DNA from: a bacterium
Lineage (GTDB): Bacteria; Patescibacteriota; Minisyncoccia; UBA6257; WO2-44-18
DNA: 44,756 nucleotides
Assembly (NCBI GenBank): GCA_023244815.1
Contig: JAHFLQ010000005.1
Coordinates: forward strand, 1 to 44,756
Direction: 5' to 3'
Part shown: piece after piece, positions 18,525 to 41,532 of the stretch
How positions within the stretch are numbered: the stretch's first letter is position 1
Layout: each line of letters starts with the position of its first letter
The notes under the pieces: generated by a model
Database searches by the model: none
What the model saw: only the letters and a program-made list of their open reading frames with translations
What the model was told of the DNA's origin: nothing
Position numbers and translations under genes: made by a program

Positions 18525-18572
18525 ACCACGGCCTTACGGCCGTGGTTTTCGTTTGGAGGTGCGGCATATAAA
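18525..18572 (+). repeat. 48-bp dispersed repeat, copy A (includes terminator-like hairpin)
   Basis: 43/48 identical to 37891-37938. Confidence 0.85.
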
Positions 18573-35737: not shown

Positions 35738-36157
35738 CTATTTTTTTATCTCCACCTTCCCTCCTGCGTTGCCTGGTACCGCGCCATTTAAAAATAAAAC
35801 CTTATTTTCGGTATTTACGTCCACAACCCTAATATTTTTGGTAGTTACCCGTTCCACGCCCATATGGCCGGCCATGCGACGGCCTGGGATAACTCTTTGA
35901 GGCGTCGTATTGCCGATGGAGCCTGGTCCACGATGGCGGTTTTTTTGGCCATGAGTTCTCGGCCCACCGCTAAAACTGTGCCGTTTGACTACCCCCTGAA
36001 AGCCTTTTCCCTTGGTCACCGCGCTTACTTTTACCAAATCGCCTATTTTTACAGCGTCAAAATTGCCGGTATCAATTTTTACCGGAGTTACTCCGTAAAC
36101 TTTATCATCAGCCCAAAGCTGATCCATTTTTAGTTTTTTCCCAACCAATTTTTCCAT
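35738..36157 (-). CDS. rplC: 50S ribosomal protein uL3, internally deleted (139 aa)
   Basis: LVGKKLKM, KGKGFQGVVKRH, RGPGSIG, MAGHMG, GAVPG; lies between rpsJ and rplD. Confidence 0.93.
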   Translation of the reverse strand: MEKLVGKKLKMDQLWADDKVYGVTPVKIDTGNFDAVKIGDLVKVSAVTKGKGFQGVVKRHSFSGGPRTHGQKNRHRGPGSIGNTTPQRVIPGRRMAGHMGVERVTTKNIRVVDVNTENKVLFLNGAVPGNAGGKVEIKK

Positions 36158-36172
36158 AGTTATGTATGGTTT

Positions 36173-36210
36173 CAACAAAAACAGCGGCTATTCAGCCGCT
36201 GTTTTTGTTG
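36173..36210. terminator. perfect 17-bp hairpin between rpsJ and rplC
   Basis: CAACAAAAACAGCGGCT-attc-AGCCGCTGTTTTTGTTG. Confidence 0.6.
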
Positions 36211-36230
36211 CTGACATAGTGATAACGATT

Positions 36231-36557
36231 CTATACCATTTTAATCTCTATGTCCACACCAGAAGGAAGGTTCAAATGTGAAAGTGACTCGATCAAGCCC
36301 TGATTAGGATTGAGAATGTCAATCAGGCGCTTATGGAGCCGCAACTCGAACTGTTCACGAGAGTTCTTGTGAACAAAAGTCGAGCGATTCACCGTATACT
36401 TTTTAATTTCGGTCGGCAGGGGTATTGGACCAACCACCTCAGCGTCATGCCGCTTGGCGGTATCTACGATTTGCTTCGCTGAATTATCGATCAGCTTGCT
36501 GTCGTAAGCCTTAATGCGCAACCTTAATTTTTCTTGTTCTTCCTTTGGTTTAGCCAT
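36231..36557 (-). CDS. rpsJ: 30S ribosomal protein uS10
   Basis: [26 protein letters not shown]. Confidence 0.98.
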
Positions 36558-36581
36558 AGGTTAGCCACAGGGGCTAAAAAC

Positions 36582-37784
36582 TTATTTGATGATCTTAGTC
36601 ACTACGCCGGCGCCGACGGTCTTGCCACCCTCGCGGATAGCAAACCGCTGCTTCTCTTCCAAGGCAACCGGAGCAATGAGCTTAACAGTGAATTTAACAG
36701 TATCGCCTGGCATCACCATTTCCATGCCTGCCGGTAAAGTAACCTCGCCGGTAACATCAGTAGTGCGAATGTAGAACTGCGGCTTGTAGCCCTTGAAAAA
36801 TGGGGTGTGGCGGCCGCCTTCTTCCTTGCTTAAGATGTATACTTCGGAATCAAATTCGGTGTGCGGGACTACGGAGCTTGGCTTGGCTACCACCTGACCG
36901 CGCTCCACATCCTCTTTTTTCAAACCACGCATTAGAAGCCCAACGTTGTCGCCAGCGCGTCCCTCGTCCATCAGCTTGTTGAACATCTCAATACCGGTGA
37001 TGACAGACTTCTGGTTTGGCTTCAAACCAATAATTTCTACTTCTTCGTTGAGCTTGCAGACACCACGCTCAATTTTGCCGGTGACCACAGTACCGCGGCC
37101 TTCAATCGAGAAAATATCTTCGATGGCCATCAAAAACGGCTTAGCAATGTCGCGGACCGGCTCAGGAATAAATTCATCCAGGGCTTTCATTAGGTCGACA
37201 ATCGGTTTAGCGGCTTCGTCGGTGGCGGCTTTAACATTCATAGCGGCCAGAGCGGAACCGCGGATTACCGGGGTAGTATCGCCTGGGTATTCGTATTTCT
37301 TCAATAGCTCGCGGACCTCGGTTTCCACTAAGTCAACCAGCTCCTTATCATCTACCAGATCAACCTTGTTCAAGAACACTACAATAGAAGGCACGCCGAC
37401 CTGGCGGGCCAAGAGAATGTGTTCACGGGTCTGGGGCATCGGGCCGTCAACAGCGGAAACTACAAGAATGGCTCCGTCCATCTGAGCGGCACCGGTAATC
37501 ATGTTTTTAATGTAATCGGCGTGGCCTGGGCAGTCGATGTGCGCGTAGTGGCGCTTTTCGGATTCGTATTCCAGGTGGGAAACAGCAATCGTAACAATCT
37601 TGCTGTCATCGCGAACTACACCGCCTTTGGCAATGTCCGCATAAGACTTTTCTTTACCGCGTCCAAGCAAAGCAGCGACGTGCGTAATAGCCGCGCTCAA
37701 AGTGGTTTTTCCATGGTCAACGTGACCGATGGTACCGACGTTTACGTGAGGTTTGGTCCTCTGATACTTTTCCTTTTCTGCCAT
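36582..37784 (-). CDS. tuf: elongation factor Tu
   Basis: [37 protein letters not shown]. Confidence 0.99.
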
Positions 37785-37839
37785 ATTTATCTAGAAATTT
37801 AATTATTTAATAATTTGTCTTCGACCGACAATACTAGAG

Positions 37840-37869
37840 AGTATACTCAAAACCAACTAAAAGTGTCAA
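37840..37869 (-). promoter_or_regulatory. tuf promoter
   Basis: Minus strand TTGACA, 18 nt, TATACT. Confidence 0.7.
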
Positions 37870-37890
37870 GTGCTGCGACTGTGAATAAAA

Positions 37891-37938
37891 ACCACGGCCT
37901 TACGTCAGTGGTTTTCGTTCGGAAGTGCAGCATATAAA
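37891..37938 (+). repeat. 48-bp dispersed repeat, copy B
   Basis: 43/48 identical to 18525-18572. Confidence 0.85.
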
Positions 37939-38006
37939 CCCTCCTGTCAAAGAAGCTGGACTTACAAGAATAAAAACCGCCGGATTTGTCCAACGGTTCA
38001 GAGCAC

Positions 38007-38423
38007 CTAACGGGATTTTACCGGCGGATGATTCTTGGGCGGCTTCCAGGATTTCCACTCCCGCAAAGAACGGCGGGAGGCCAATATCCTCTGACGCATT
38101 GGAGCCAACTTTTCTGAAGACATGATGCCGTGACTATTAATGACATACAGCATCGAAAACGCCGCGCGAAGAAATAGGTCCAATTCCTTATTCCACTGAT
38201 CAGTGATCTTCACATCCTCGGCATGTAATGCATCTTGATGCACCATGACGTCGATTGCGAACATCATGTCGAGCACGACCGGCAGGGTCTTTACGATACA
38301 CTCCACTTGGAGGCGCGTACAGCGCTTGCCGCCGCCTTGTACGAACGCTTCCGCGGCATCCTGAAGACACGTGCGGAGATGCGCTGTTTCGCGCTTCGCG
38401 ATCGCTACCGAAACATGAGGCAT
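38007..38423 (-). CDS. hypothetical protein (accessory cassette)
   Basis: GGAGGG SD, TAATCT -10, terminator at 37972-37998; GC-richer than its flanks. Confidence 0.65.
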   Translation of the reverse strand: MPHVSVAIAKRETAHLRTCLQDAAEAFVQGGGKRCTRLQVECIVKTLPVVLDMMFAIDVMVHQDALHAEDVKITDQWNKELDLFLRAAFSMLYVINSHGIMSSEKLAPMRQRILASRRSLREWKSWKPPKNHPPVKSR

Positions 38424-38487
38424 GACCCCTCCAATCTATAAGAACTGACTTAAGATTAATAAAAATCCTCTGCTTTGGCAACAACGC

Positions 38488-38539
38488 GTAGGTCCCAGAA
38501 CTAGGTTATCTTGCGATCGTCAGTTAACCTAGTTATAAT
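38488..38539 (+). promoter_or_regulatory. GTAG-N7 + 36-bp palindrome containing the promoter of the PaaX/Cas2-like gene
   Basis: AACTAGGTTATCTTGCGATCGTCAGTTAACCTAGTT(38499-38534); TTGCGA(38511-16), 17 nt, TATAAT(38534-39). Confidence 0.8.
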
Positions 38540-38551
38540 AAATTTCAATTT

Positions 38552-39136
38552 ATGCGCGGCGAACGATTGTTAAAAGCTTTGGACATTATTGAAACGCTCA
38601 CCTGTAATACGGCTGGGTTTATGGAAGCATTTCTGTCCAGCTCGAAAAGTAAGTACTTGCCCTTATTAAGATTTCGGCCGCGTATTTATAACAGTATGTC
38701 AGAGGGTATCCGAAAAGATGTAAAAGAAAAACAGGAAAGACAGAGGATATATGATCTAATTTCAAGACTCCAAGAAGATGGGCTGATTGAAAAAAGTAAG
38801 CCTGGCCGCTGGTTAATAACGGCCAGGGGTAGGTTAAAGAAAGATAAATTAAAATCTGAATTGGCCAATAGATTGCCTGATCAAAGTTATAAAACTAAAC
38901 CATCTAAAGAGATTATAATTTTTAGTTTTGATATACCAGAAAAATTGAGAAATAGGAGAAATTGGCTTAGATCCACTCTTAAAAATATTGGGCTCTCAAT
39001 GTTGCAGAAAAGTGTTTGGCTCGGCAAGGTAATAATGCCGAAAGATTTTATGGAAGACCTCAAAAAACTGCAATTGCTAAATTATATTGAGATTTTTACC
39101 GTCGGAAAGGCCGGCACTATCAAACAGGTAGTCTGA
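38552..39136 (+). CDS. PaaX-like protein: winged helix + Cas2/VapD-like central domain
   Basis: ISRLQEDGLIEK...WLITARG wHTH; IIFSFDIPEK..RRNWLRSTLKNIGLSMLQKSVWL matches the PaaX-middle/Cas2 pattern; AT-rich. Confidence 0.85.
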   Translation: MRGERLLKALDIIETLTCNTAGFMEAFLSSSKSKYLPLLRFRPRIYNSMSEGIRKDVKEKQERQRIYDLISRLQEDGLIEKSKPGRWLITARGRLKKDKLKSELANRLPDQSYKTKPSKEIIIFSFDIPEKLRNRRNWLRSTLKNIGLSMLQKSVWLGKVIMPKDFMEDLKKLQLLNYIEIFTVGKAGTIKQVV

Positions 39137-39174
39137 CTAACTAGGTTATCTGACGGTCGTCGGATAACCTAGTA
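39128..39174 (+). repeat. GTAG-N7 + 36-bp palindrome, downstream copy
   Basis: AACTAGGTTATCTGACGGTCGTCGGATAACCTAGTA(39139-39174), 30/36 identical to the upstream copy. Confidence 0.85.
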
Positions 39175-39211
39175 GAACACCAGAACTGGCGGTTAAGCCT
39201 TGGTACCGAAG

Positions 39212-41323
39212 TTACTTTTTACCCTCCTTGATAAGTTGGGCGACGTTCTGCGGAACCGGTTCGTAATGGTCAAATTCCATCGTGAAGTTACCGCGGCCCT
39301 GGCTCATGGAGCGCAGTTTTGTCGCGTAACCGAACATTTCGGAAAGCGGCACCTTCGCATCAACCACTTTAATGCCGCCAAGGCGGTCGCTCATCTCTTC
39401 TATGCGGCCACGCTTAGAACTTAAATCGCCAGTAACGTCGCCTAAATATTCAGCTGGCGCTAGCACTTGCAATTTCATCACCGGCTCAAGAAGCACTGGC
39501 CTGGCCTTGTTGGCCGCTTCTTTAAAAGCCATGGACCCGGCGATTTTGAAAGCGGCCTCCGAAGAGTCTACTTCGTGGAAAGAGCCGTCAAAAAGCGTTA
39601 CTTGCACGTCGATCATTGGGAAACCGGCAACCACGCCCTTGGTCATCGCCTCTTTTACGCCTTTTTCCGTTGGCGCGATGAATTCCTTTGGCACCGCGCC
39701 GCCTTTAATTTCGTCAATAAATTCAAAACCTTTGCCGCGTTCCAGCGGCTCCACCTTCAGCCAAACATGGCCGTACTGACCCTTACCGCCGGACTGGCGG
39801 ATATACTTACCTTCGGCTTCCGCTTCGGCCTGCACGGTTTCTTTATAGGCAACCTGGGGACGGCCGACATTGGACTCCACACCAAACTCGCGCTTCATCC
39901 GATCTACGATAATTTCCAGGTGTAATTCGCCCATACCGGAGATGATCGTCTCTCCTGTTTCCGGGTCTCCCGCGACGCGAAAAGTTGGGTCTTCGTCGGC
40001 CAAACGCCGCAAAGCCAGACTCATTTTTTCCTGGTCAGCTTTAGTTTTCGGATCGATGCGTATGCCAATGACCGGCTCTGGGAAGGTGATCTTTTCTAGG
40101 ACGATCGTTTTTTCAGAATCGCAGAGCGTATCGCCAGTGGTGGTATCCTTTAGGCCGACCAGCGCGCCGATTTCGCCGGCGTAAATCTCATCTATTTCTT
40201 CGCGCTGATTGGCATGCATTTTCACGATGCGGCTGATGCGCTCTTGTTTATTTTTACTGGAATTTAAAACGTAGCTTCCTTTCTTGAGGGTGCCGGAATA
40301 AACACGGAAGAAGGTCAGGGAACCGACGAATGGGTCGGTAGCAATCTTGAAAGCCAGCGCCGCGAACGGTTCGGCATCGCTAGCTTTTCTAACAATATCC
40401 GCGCCCCTAGAATCGGTGCCTTTAGCCGGGCGGATACCATCCATATCCACCGGAGAGGGCAGATAGTCCACCACGCCGTCGAGTATCAGCTGAACGCCCT
40501 TATTTTTTAAAGCAGAACCGCAAAAGATCGGGATAATTTTTAATTTTAGGCAAGCGGCGCGAAGGAGAGTTTTTAATACTTCCAGGCTCGGCTCTTTGCC
40601 TTCCAAATACTCGCTCATAGCTTTGTCGTCCTGTTCAACAATTTTCTCCACTAAAGCGTGGCGGTATTTTTTTGCCTCGGCTTGCCACTTTTCTGGAATG
40701 TCCAGTTCAACTATTTTTTCTCCCTTTTCGCCTTCAAAGTGGTAGGCTTTCATCCGCATCAGATCGATAACACCCTCAAAGGCAGATTCCGCACCCATCG
40801 GAATTTGCACCGGCATCGCGTGCGGATTCAAGCGCTCATGAATGGACTTCACGTCGGCAACAAAATCCGCGCCCATCCGATCCATTTTATTAATGAAGCA
40901 GATGCGCGGTACGCCATAGTCGTCGGCATAACGCCAGTTGGTTTCCGATTGCGGCTCCACGCCAGAAACGCCGTCAAACACCACCACCGCGCCATCCAGC
41001 ACGCGGAGCGAGCGCTTTACTTCCACGGTAAAATCAATGTGGCCGGGGGTGTCGATCAGATTGAAGCGAACCTCTTTGCTTTTATCGCCGTGGGCGTAGG
41101 TCGGGACCCAGAAAGCGGTCGTGGCGGCGGCGGTGATAGTGATGCCGCGCTCGCGCTCCTGTTCCATCCAGTCCATCACTGTATCGCCAGTGTGTACTTC
41201 GCCGATTTTGTGGGAAACACCAGTATAAAAAAGTACGCGCTCGGACACGGTCGTCTTGCCCGCGTCGATGTGAGCGATAATTCCAAAATCACGGATTCTA
41301 TCTAAAGGGTATAGTCTGGGCAT
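39212..41323 (-). CDS. fusA: elongation factor G
   Basis: [44 protein letters not shown]. Confidence 0.99.
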
Positions 41324-41367
41324 GCCAATTTTATCTCCAAGCGTAGCGAGGAGCTATAAAATTGAGC

Positions 41368-41474
41368 ACCCCGTTAGATGCGGGAAAAGCTAGAAGGCTT
41401 TCATCCATTCGACTATTATTTTTTGATTTCTTATTTGATAGACTGTTCATAGATTTACCGATATCTAACGGGGT
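41368..41474. mobile_element. 107-bp TIR-bounded element, copy 2
   Basis: ACCCCGTTAGAT ... ATCTAACGGGGT with the same left flank AAAATTGAGC as copy 1. Confidence 0.7.
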
Positions 41475-41532
41475 AAGGGTTTTGTTACTGAAATTCGTTC
41501 GGTTATCACCTCCGAATTTCAGACAAAGCCCC

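Follow-up and report, generated by a model that had tools for sequence, protein, structure and literature searches.

Why does a small AT-rich gene lie antisense between fusA and tuf, which are normally adjacent, and why is it bracketed by two similar palindromes? The question is raised by a 44,756-nucleotide contig, JAHFLQ010000005.1 of assembly GCA_023244815.1, from a bacterium of the Patescibacteriota (Minisyncoccia; UBA6257; WO2-44-18). This whole stretch of DNA is called the window below. It is contig C12 of a 96%-complete source genome (G000) of 598 kb in 15 contigs, and coordinates are window positions unless another contig is named. The gene, located at 38552-39136 on the forward strand, encodes a 194-aa protein with a PadR/MarR-type winged helix followed by a Cas2-like domain; its homologs are here referred to as the family, and the two palindromes as P-up and P-down. 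The explanation we favour, and consider fairly probable, is that the protein is a palindrome-binding dimer that represses its own gene at P-up, that P-down is a selected second site serving looping or insulation, and that palindromes and gene together make up an accessory module that spreads horizontally.

The gene and its two palindromes

Both fusA (39212-41323) and tuf (36582-37784) are encoded on the reverse strand, and the 1427 bases between them contain two open reading frames (ORFs), the family gene and an orphan, orfx. Around the family gene the GC content is 0.32-0.39, compared to about 0.50-0.55 for fusA and tuf. Coordinates, strands, domains and GC content all agree with the first-pass annotation of this DNA, made from the sequence alone, which described an AT-rich winged-helix/Cas2-like gene antisense between fusA and tuf but overlooked orfx. 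A 1876-nt Logan DNA contig covers positions 37714-39589 with a single difference. The Logan contigs come from one study, two of them possibly from the source sample, and no RNA data set containing the locus was listed. The joints found in these contigs are short-sided, 85% alike and probably represent tuf and fusA of other organisms.

P-up, the proposed operator, is an imperfect 36-bp dyad at 38499-38534. Its centre at 38516/38517 is in register with the ACGR/YCGT sites of the homologs, the slash denoting the dyad axis. P-down is found at 39139-39174, starting 2 nt past the stop codon of the family gene and 37 nt from that of fusA. Over 35 nt (38499-38533 and 39139-39173) the two are 86% identical, and in each of them the 18-nt arms are 83% and the 16-nt arms 94% complementary. 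The gene is thus bracketed by two inverted repeats, as had been described. The arm motif ACTAGGTTAWC occurs five times in the window when at most one mismatch is allowed, against 0.62 expected occurrences, and none of 100 shuffled sequences reached five.

The family gene has a promoter-like sequence, TTGCGA-17-TATAAT, at 38511-38539 on the forward strand, matching the consensus at 10 of 12 positions. The -35 element lies within P-up and the -10 element at its right edge, so the earlier claim that the upstream palindrome carries the promoter of the gene holds. The accompanying suggestion that it is the asymmetry of the palindrome that creates the -35 element is weak, since the symmetric version, CTGACG, also fits TTGACA at four of six positions. 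The ATG is found 12 nt past the -10 element and no Shine-Dalgarno sequence is visible, and the mRNA is therefore likely to be near-leaderless. No run of T residues follows P-down in the window. The tetranucleotide GTAG is found at 38488-38491 and at 39128-39131, in each case 7 nt ahead of the palindrome; the downstream one is, as had been cautioned, within the last codons of the gene (GTA GTC TGA).

Generality of the bracket

A scan using one genome per species yielded 392 relatives of the gene. Eighty of these 392 loci were examined and 78 were evaluated, leaving out L044, which had no ORF bounds, and L078, one flank of which was short. The 155 nt around the start were compared with the 155 nt around the stop, and a locus was counted as bracketed if the best ungapped repeat scored at least 14. 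As controls, 240 non-neighbour ORFs of the same loci were used, while 100 'near' control ORFs were kept separate. The score was reached for 73 of the 78 family loci and for five of the 240 controls, and CGRYCG was present in both flanks of 69 family loci compared to two controls. Three of the five control outliers are themselves flanked genes, two of them TrpR-like and one an IS200-type Y1 transposase. Metagenome contigs provided an independent set of 58 loci, of which 36 were evaluated, 13 having short flanks and the remaining ones being duplicates; here the repeat was found in 32 of 36 and the CGRYCG core in 34 of 36. A distant subfamily among the relatives is also bracketed, with other centres such as GCCA/TGGC.

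The palindromes are moreover nearly confined to family genes. In the 575 kb covered by the 78 loci, 102 of the 104 strong dyads with the family centre adjoin a family gene. The two strays are both third cognate copies belonging to the neighbouring family gene, and are found 760 and 997 nt downstream of it. One of the third copies (L019:4597-5400) brackets a 167-aa HTH_11/LexA-like ORF on the opposite strand, the other (L068:5530-5570) lies in frame within an uvrC-like ORF.

The first-pass annotation had raised the possibility that both a CG-NN-CG core in flanking palindromes and GTAG seven nucleotides ahead of them are shared by the homologs. The palindromes with their core proved to be general (73/78 and 69/78), but the tetranucleotide did not. 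In the examined left flanks of 130 homolog palindromes GTAG occurs five times in all and never at an offset of 7, and the third copy of the window palindrome in the source genome also lacks it, and the spacing at the two window copies is a coincidence.

Many family genes are found close to contig ends. In one locus (L008:1-160) the contig ends in a perfect 140-bp palindrome, by which the family gene is folded back on itself at its start; this is most likely an assembly fold-back at a real 36-bp dyad.

Anatomy of the sites and their private pairing

A site profile was made from 130 palindromes, or 260 half-sites, aligned on the dyad; 16 of 81 gene pairs were not core-centred and were excluded. 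Position -3 is C in all 260 half-sites, position -2 is G in 256, position -4 is A in 190, and position -1 is a purine, which gives the family-wide centre ACGR/YCGT. The arms, out to about position -18, are weakly conserved across the family. The distance from the palindrome centre to the ATG peaks at 24-25 nt in the homologs, and in many of their upstream copies TTGACG lies on the left side of the centre and the right edge carries a -10-like element (TAAAAT, TATAAT or TGnTAAACT), so that the promoter is built into the site. In 46 loci the downstream copy exceeds the upstream one in symmetry, in 27 it is the other way round and in eight the two are equal, although the symmetry score of the upstream window of L024 is spurious because it contains Ns. 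Many sites are near-perfect dyads, and apart from the promoter bases there are no conserved bulges or asymmetries. On the sense strand G.T and A.C mismatches are about equally frequent, 31 against 34 in the upstream and 46 against 44 in the downstream copies. This lack of a G.T excess points to a double-stranded protein site and not to a selected RNA or single-strand hairpin. The centres of the two sites are 599-789 bp apart.

When a genome has two or three family loci, the up- and downstream arms of one gene resemble each other more than they resemble those of the co-resident paralog. This was the case in 28 of 28 comparisons, with median arm identities of 23 of 28 positions for the own pair and 12.5 of 28 for the cross comparison. 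Two complete genomes of one genus carry the gene at the same two loci, the family proteins being 57-60% identical and the neighbours 74-94%. In both of these locus pairs the Cas2-like half is still alike at the DNA level. No such similarity is left at P-up in either pair, nor in the winged-helix half of L238/L241 or in roughly the first half of the gene of L235/L240. The combination of a conserved Cas2-like half with a variable winged helix parallels that of a conserved centre with variable arms. Taken as a pattern in the DNA, the general bracket, the private arms and the near confinement of the dyads to family genes strongly support the view that protein and palindromes form a cognate pair, as the first-pass annotation had proposed.

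Two other functions were considered for the sites. P-down might act as promoter of the next gene, and this is plausible for the family copy on contig C11 of the source genome, where TTGCCA-17-TGTTAT precedes the downstream ORF. It is not general, as the distance from P-down to the next start codon varies from -8 to 433 nt. A Xer/dif-like site was rejected as a general reading because variability is highest next to the centre, at the positions that a conserved recombinase would occupy.

The protein

The best Pfam match of the family protein is PF20803, PaaX_M, with 45.5 bits against a cut-off of 24 (E 8.3e-12), and it also matches PF09827, Cas2 (E 9.4e-6). The NCBIfam cas2 equivalog TIGR01573 gives 26.6 bits against a cut-off of 24.5, and databases will therefore label such proteins 'CRISPR-associated endonuclease Cas2'; PADLOC likewise returned Cas2 models only. 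For the N-terminal half the winged-helix matches in Pfam are weak, PadR, TrmB and Mrr_N all being below their own cut-offs, and neither the PaaX N-terminal winged-helix family nor PaaX_C was found in Pfam at E values up to 1. The protein ends directly after the Cas2-like domain. No fused or longer family members were found, which is weak evidence.

An AlphaFold2 model based on 29 homologs has a mean predicted local distance difference test score of 81. According to this model and VIA-align, the N-terminal winged-helix part comprises residues 1-110 (38552-38881, forward strand), residues 31-55 being modelled as disordered, and it is fast-evolving. VIA-align of model residues 1-108 gave Z scores of 9-11 to AphA, PadR and MarR chains, and the AphA and PadR chains (Z 10-11) superpose with a root-mean-square deviation of 1.6-2.5 Angstrom over 72-86 residues. 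A wide VIA structure search returned the winged-helix domain alone and is silent on the C-terminal domain. The Cas2-like ferredoxin-fold domain, residues 116-194 (38897-39133, forward strand), is identified by PF20803, PF09827, TIGR01573 and Foldseek. In a Foldseek search against the PDB the top rows are all Cas2 chains, with probabilities up to 1.00 and TMt about 0.5, and E. coli PaaX (8a39) appears at rank 17, aligned over the whole model. No row reaches an E value of 1e-3 or lower, because the query has two domains. A family-profile sequence search of the PDB gave weak MarR and Cas2 rows alone, with E values of 0.025-0.6.

The Cas2-like domain contains an invariant FDIPE motif, the aspartate of which (Asp127, codon 38930-38932, forward strand) aligns to the Asp of YDV in the Cas2 chain 3exc, that is, the Asp of Cas2 strand beta-1. 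D127, E130, R136, W138, R140, S154 and W156 are among the residues that do not vary across 29 diverse members. The mean pairwise identity is 0.53 for the Cas2-like half and 0.33 for the winged-helix half. A homodimer prediction scored 0.05 against a mark of 0.42 and is weighed for neither side.

PaaX is the phenylacetyl-CoA-responsive repressor of the paa operon. It is made up of PF07848, PF20803 and PF08223 (PDB 8a39), and acts at inverted repeats in promoters. The family protein shares with it the order of a winged helix and then the Cas2-like middle domain, but lacks the PaaX N-terminal family and PaaX_C and has 194 residues compared to the 305 of the 8a39 chain. The family gene is furthermore bracketed by two private sites and is found in the small genomes of this phylum, about 0.6-1.5 Mb. 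AphA and PadR chains fit the N-terminal domain, as noted, but the dimerisation helix of PadR is replaced by the Cas2-like partner. The protein has kept the beta-1 Asp of Cas2, and differs from Cas2 by carrying a winged helix in its N-terminal part.

A CRISPR context is absent. The 96%-complete source genome contains no match to Cas1 (PF01867) and no array-like repeats as judged by a 20-mer scan, in line with the first-pass annotation, which had stated that this is not CRISPR. Nor do the repeats of the family form an array: there are two of them, spaced about 640 bp, and they enclose their own gene.

Paralogs and solo palindromes in the source genome

The source genome contains two more family genes, at C5:10564-11181 and C11:17376-17927, whose products are 46% and 36% identical to the window protein. 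All three score above the PF20803 cut-off, their mutual identity is 36-46%, and each gene is bracketed by its own pair of palindromes. The C5 paralog has a perfect 42-bp dyad directly past its stop codon and an imperfect copy upstream, over a promoter-like TTGCAG-17-TAGCAT. The C11 paralog has TATAACA...TGTTATA dyads on both flanks.

The palindrome type of the window is present in three copies in the 598 kb. The third is a perfect 34-bp dyad at C9:62352-62385 (copy span 62350-62387) with the identical arm pair, and it begins at the stop codon of an hpf-like ORF. Two more solo dyads with C11-type arms lie over the stop codons of tsaD (C2:40750) and uvrB (C3:20198). There are thus three solo palindromes, each cognate to a resident family gene and each at the stop of a host gene.

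Distribution and apparent acquisition

A search with the family profile gave a match in 21 of 41 relatives, and across the phylum in 70 of 301 genomes with 1-10 copies each. The distribution is very uneven, exemplified by one bacterial family where nine of 10 genomes have a match and another with none in 15. None of three same-genus genomes, 84-96% complete, has a family gene, while the source genome has three divergent copies. The GC content of these copies is 0.37-0.39 and that at third codon positions (GC3) 0.38-0.42, compared to a genome GC of 0.48 and a GC3 of 0.52-0.59 for neighbouring genes.

The spacer between fusA and tuf is a variable spot in this bacterial family. Of 30 relatives, 10 have a spacer of about 100-150 nt, five one of 330-1270 nt and 14 one exceeding 1500 nt. 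In the same-genus genomes an ORF for a membrane protein of about 300 aa occupies the gap, and neither the family gene nor orfx is present there. As anticipated by the first-pass annotation, which had suggested a comparison of this locus in relatives, the gene is not fixed at it. The relatives' gaps (L092, L118-L121) contain a 285-300-aa membrane ORF in G001, G002, G003 and G017, and four small ORFs in G004.

The clearest case of an insertion of the module is found at comEC. In this bacterial family comEC is split into a membrane ORF (comEC-N) and an ORF with a metallo-beta-lactamase (MBL) domain, in different frames and with an overlap of about 30 nt in three relatives. The regions compared are C11:15978-18837 of the source genome and L158, L159, L161 and L164 of four relatives representing three genera. 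The two ORFs overlap in G001, G003 and G017, and are adjacent without a cassette in G019. In the source genome a cassette of 637 nt lies exactly between them: P-up comes directly after the stop codon of comEC-N, the gene and P-down are next, and behind them comEC-MBL has a new start. No palindrome was found at the comEC junction of the cassette-free relatives, and integration into a pre-existing solo palindrome is consequently unsupported at this locus. A corresponding empty-site comparison for the C5 copy was dropped since its flanks are not collinear in the relatives.

The 141 neighbour proteins of the 78 loci fall into 102 clusters, and none is a general partner. The largest cluster is a Xer-like recombinase found at 10 of the 78 loci, and gyrB lies upstream of the family gene in nine. 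The XerC/D-like tyrosine recombinase adjoins the family gene upstream on the same strand in nine loci (L016, L023, L026, L036, L042, L045, L046, L053 and L075) and downstream on the opposite strand in L028. The source genome encodes a single tyrosine recombinase.

From its distribution, its base composition and the comEC insertion the module looks like an accessory, horizontally acquired and patchy unit of Patescibacteria.

Possible mechanism and alternative explanations

In the mechanism we propose, the protein, of about 190-200 aa, would form a dimer and bind its own palindrome, which is about 36 bp long. The variable winged helices would read the private outer arms, while the conserved Cas2-like dimer would sit over the family-wide centre ACGR/YCGT. 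Bound at P-up, the protein would repress its own near-leaderless promoter. Autorepression is the best-supported step, as P-up overlaps the promoter of the gene. P-down would be a second cognate site kept under selection, usually as the more perfect palindrome, and its likeliest role would be either looping with P-up or a protein roadblock insulating the cassette from its neighbours. The module would land between genes without breaking them. In the window tuf has its own strong promoter-like site, TTGACA-18-TATACT at 37869-37840, so an insertion of the cassette need not silence it.

Several observations weigh against this picture. No helical phasing of the two sites was detected (Rayleigh p 0.34-0.80 for periods of 10-11.5 bp), and phase-dependent looping thus gains no support; of the operator function put forward in the first-pass annotation, autoregulation fits the overlap with the promoter, while this form of looping does not find backing. 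P-down has no fixed distance to the next gene. As for horizontal spread, the low GC content could stem from a protein rich in Lys, Ile and Asn and not from a foreign origin. The closest protein among 5.8 billion is 59% identical, giving no sign of recent movement, and relatives in metagenomes are at most 46% identical. Among viral contigs 29 pattern matches were obtained, none of them a relative of the family, and no target-site duplication is visible around the copies of the source genome. Some clades have long kept the gene in the same place, as seen for the gyrB and Xer loci and the congener pair, indicating that it is not a frequent jumper and may serve its host.

If the family were ordinary autoregulated repressors of the PaaX/PadR type, with P-down acting as a hairpin terminator or mRNA stabiliser and the patchiness caused by loss, then the promoter within the palindrome, the PadR/MarR-type winged helix, the synteny kept in some clades and the lack of evidence for recent transfer would all be accounted for. 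A terminator need not copy the arms of an operator, yet the private arms matched every time (28 of 28 comparisons), the sense strand shows no G.U-type bias, and P-down lacks a T-run in the window. This explanation also has to face the absence of the family from all three same-genus genomes next to three divergent copies in the source genome, a cassette that separates comEC ORFs found overlapping in three relatives and adjacent in a fourth (three genera in all), a GC3 about 0.15 below that of the neighbours for all three copies, and the fact that no regulon is visible besides the three solo sites at gene ends. We regard it as distinctly unlikely. Somewhat more room must be given to a one-gene mobile element specific to Patescibacteria, although it too is unlikely. 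Here the Cas2-like dimer, with its pair of Asp residues on the dyad axis, would cut or nick the ACGR/YCGT dyad of the palindromic ends, and the fast-evolving winged helices would provide a private address. The unit would excise, leave or re-form a solo palindrome and insert elsewhere, the solo palindromes being footprints. The seven invariant residues named above, the alignment of D127 with the Cas2 beta-1 Asp, the palindromic ends conserved on both sides, the three cognate solo palindromes over the stops of hpf, tsaD and uvrB, the insertion between overlapping comEC ORFs, the up to 10 copies per genome and the IS200-like size and layout are all compatible with such an element. So is what has been described for the fold shared by VapD and Cas2, namely a conserved catalytic Asp in VapD and reported DNase/RNase activity of some Cas2 proteins (PMC11980593). 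A conserved Asp can, however, be structural, and Cas2 catalysis is dispensable in its known role (PMC6452270). There are moreover no near-identical copies in different contexts and no visible target-site duplications, the empty comEC site has no palindrome, and some clades have retained the gene vertically over long periods.

A further alternative is that one chain acts in addiction or defence in the manner of VapD/Cas2 toxins; a Cas2-like nuclease would be the toxin, the winged helix a built-in autoregulator and the palindromes operators only. We assign this a small probability. Operons for toxin-antitoxin systems are classically autoregulated at promoter palindromes. With type II VapD systems the family shares the fold, an Asp kept at the catalytic position and a palindromic operator at the promoter, and the patchy, multi-copy, AT-rich and selfish-looking spread with fast-diverging specificity is typical of toxin-antitoxin and defence genes. 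It differs in being a single gene without an antitoxin partner, none of the 102 neighbour clusters being general, and in having a second site past the stop codon, the conservation of which a toxin leaves unexplained. VapD-like toxins are known, as are forms in which VapW is fused to VapD (PMC11980593). Against this reading, PADLOC gave Cas2 models alone, and no fused or longer forms were found in the family, which is, as noted, weak evidence. The analogy to repetitive extragenic palindromic (REP) elements and their RAYT enzymes drawn in the first-pass annotation, according to which this would be a REPtron- or IS200-like single-strand-hairpin element with palindromes acting as folded single strands marked by GTAG, did not stand, and has hardly any probability left. 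The gene does lie between palindromes of the same orientation, with GTAG 7 nt ahead of both window copies, and one gene of about 0.6 kb in such a position, together with solo palindromes elsewhere in the genome, is a likeness to IS200/IS605 and REP/RAYT systems. On the other hand the source genome has no match to the Y1/HUH enzyme (PF01797), the tetranucleotide is not conserved in homologs (0/130) or in the third copy, three copies in 598 kb is a very low number, and the absence of G.T bias and of conserved bulges or asymmetry beyond the promoter bases in the many near-perfect dyads leaves no hairpin signature. Free-standing homing endonucleases are similar in that a small AT-rich gene is found between conserved, normally adjacent genes (fusA/tuf, the comEC halves) with none of them broken, but the family protein has no known homing-endonuclease domain, and the presumed site is intact on both sides and not split.

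Other features of the window and the source genome

The orphan orfx (38007-38423, reverse strand, 138 aa), divergent from the family gene, has a high GC content (0.53, GC3 0.63) and GGAGG ahead of its ATG, and is followed on its 3' side by a terminator-like hairpin at 37999-37974. It has no family match in Pfam, NCBIfam or PADLOC, and no homologs were found in 234 loci, in the rest of the source genome or in the fusA-tuf gaps of relatives. With neither homologs nor a family match, orfx was dropped as a candidate cargo of the cassette.

A repeat of about 48 nt, containing the hairpin CCACGGCC-TTAC-GGCCGTGG, is found at 37893-37940 and 18525-18572 in the window and at C9:42417-42463 and C9:62484-62530. 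The first of these copies sits between orfx and the tuf promoter. With an A-run before and a T-run after the hairpin of the window copy, the repeat looks like a two-way intrinsic terminator. An Rfam search over 36000-41500, at E values up to 1, left the cassette empty and gave three sub-threshold small-RNA rows near 36130-36260.

Other palindromes are also present in the source genome. About 50 nt past the solo site at hpf and directly beyond an intrinsic terminator there is a 40-bp palindrome (C9:62436-62475) with the centre CCGTCGACGG and arms unlike those of the three paralogs. Another palindrome family, of the TTATCGGCTAATTCGTACGAATTAGCCGATAA type and about 34-42 bp long, has five copies (C1:785-818, C1:1120-1159, C2:83357-83398, C9:31764-31797 and C13:39096-39129); no associated gene was identified. 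A second bracketed gene family is represented by a 144-aa TrpR-like helix-turn-helix gene (PF01371, 27 bits) at C3:13410-13924, which has GCTATGACATGTCATAGC palindromes on both sides and sits between an ORF for the polA 5'-exonuclease and one for the polA polymerase. Two more TrpR-like genes with flanking repeats, L071:5293-5679 and L046:268-672, were among the control outliers.

Significance

A search of the full-text literature, outside which most subscription journals fall, gave no description of a winged-helix/Cas2-like family bracketed by palindromes in Patescibacteria. The two-site bracket and the cassette behaviour of a PaaX/Cas2-like autoregulated winged-helix protein thus appear to be undescribed, although a prior description is possible. 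The family is common in Patescibacteria, with 392 relatives and matches in 70 of 301 genomes, and it is routinely mislabelled as Cas2 in organisms without CRISPR. The palindrome-gene-palindrome architecture gives the correct annotation, as one half of a pair of protein and site. The TrpR-like family with the same bracket indicates that this design may be general in the phylum.

The family would also provide many orthogonal pairs of a protein and an operator of about 36 bp, with a conserved core and private arms, and it offers a concrete opportunity to test whether a Cas2-like domain can have a DNA-directed role outside CRISPR. If the family turned out to be mobile enzymes, it would be a stand-alone relative of Cas2 with a site-specific, repeat-recognising DNA function outside CRISPR, and would bear on the origin of the Cas2 subunit and of palindromic CRISPR repeats. 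For the organisms themselves the finding means that genomes of symbionts, even when very small, continue to acquire and retain selfish-looking cassettes, inserted where genes are tightly packed or overlap.

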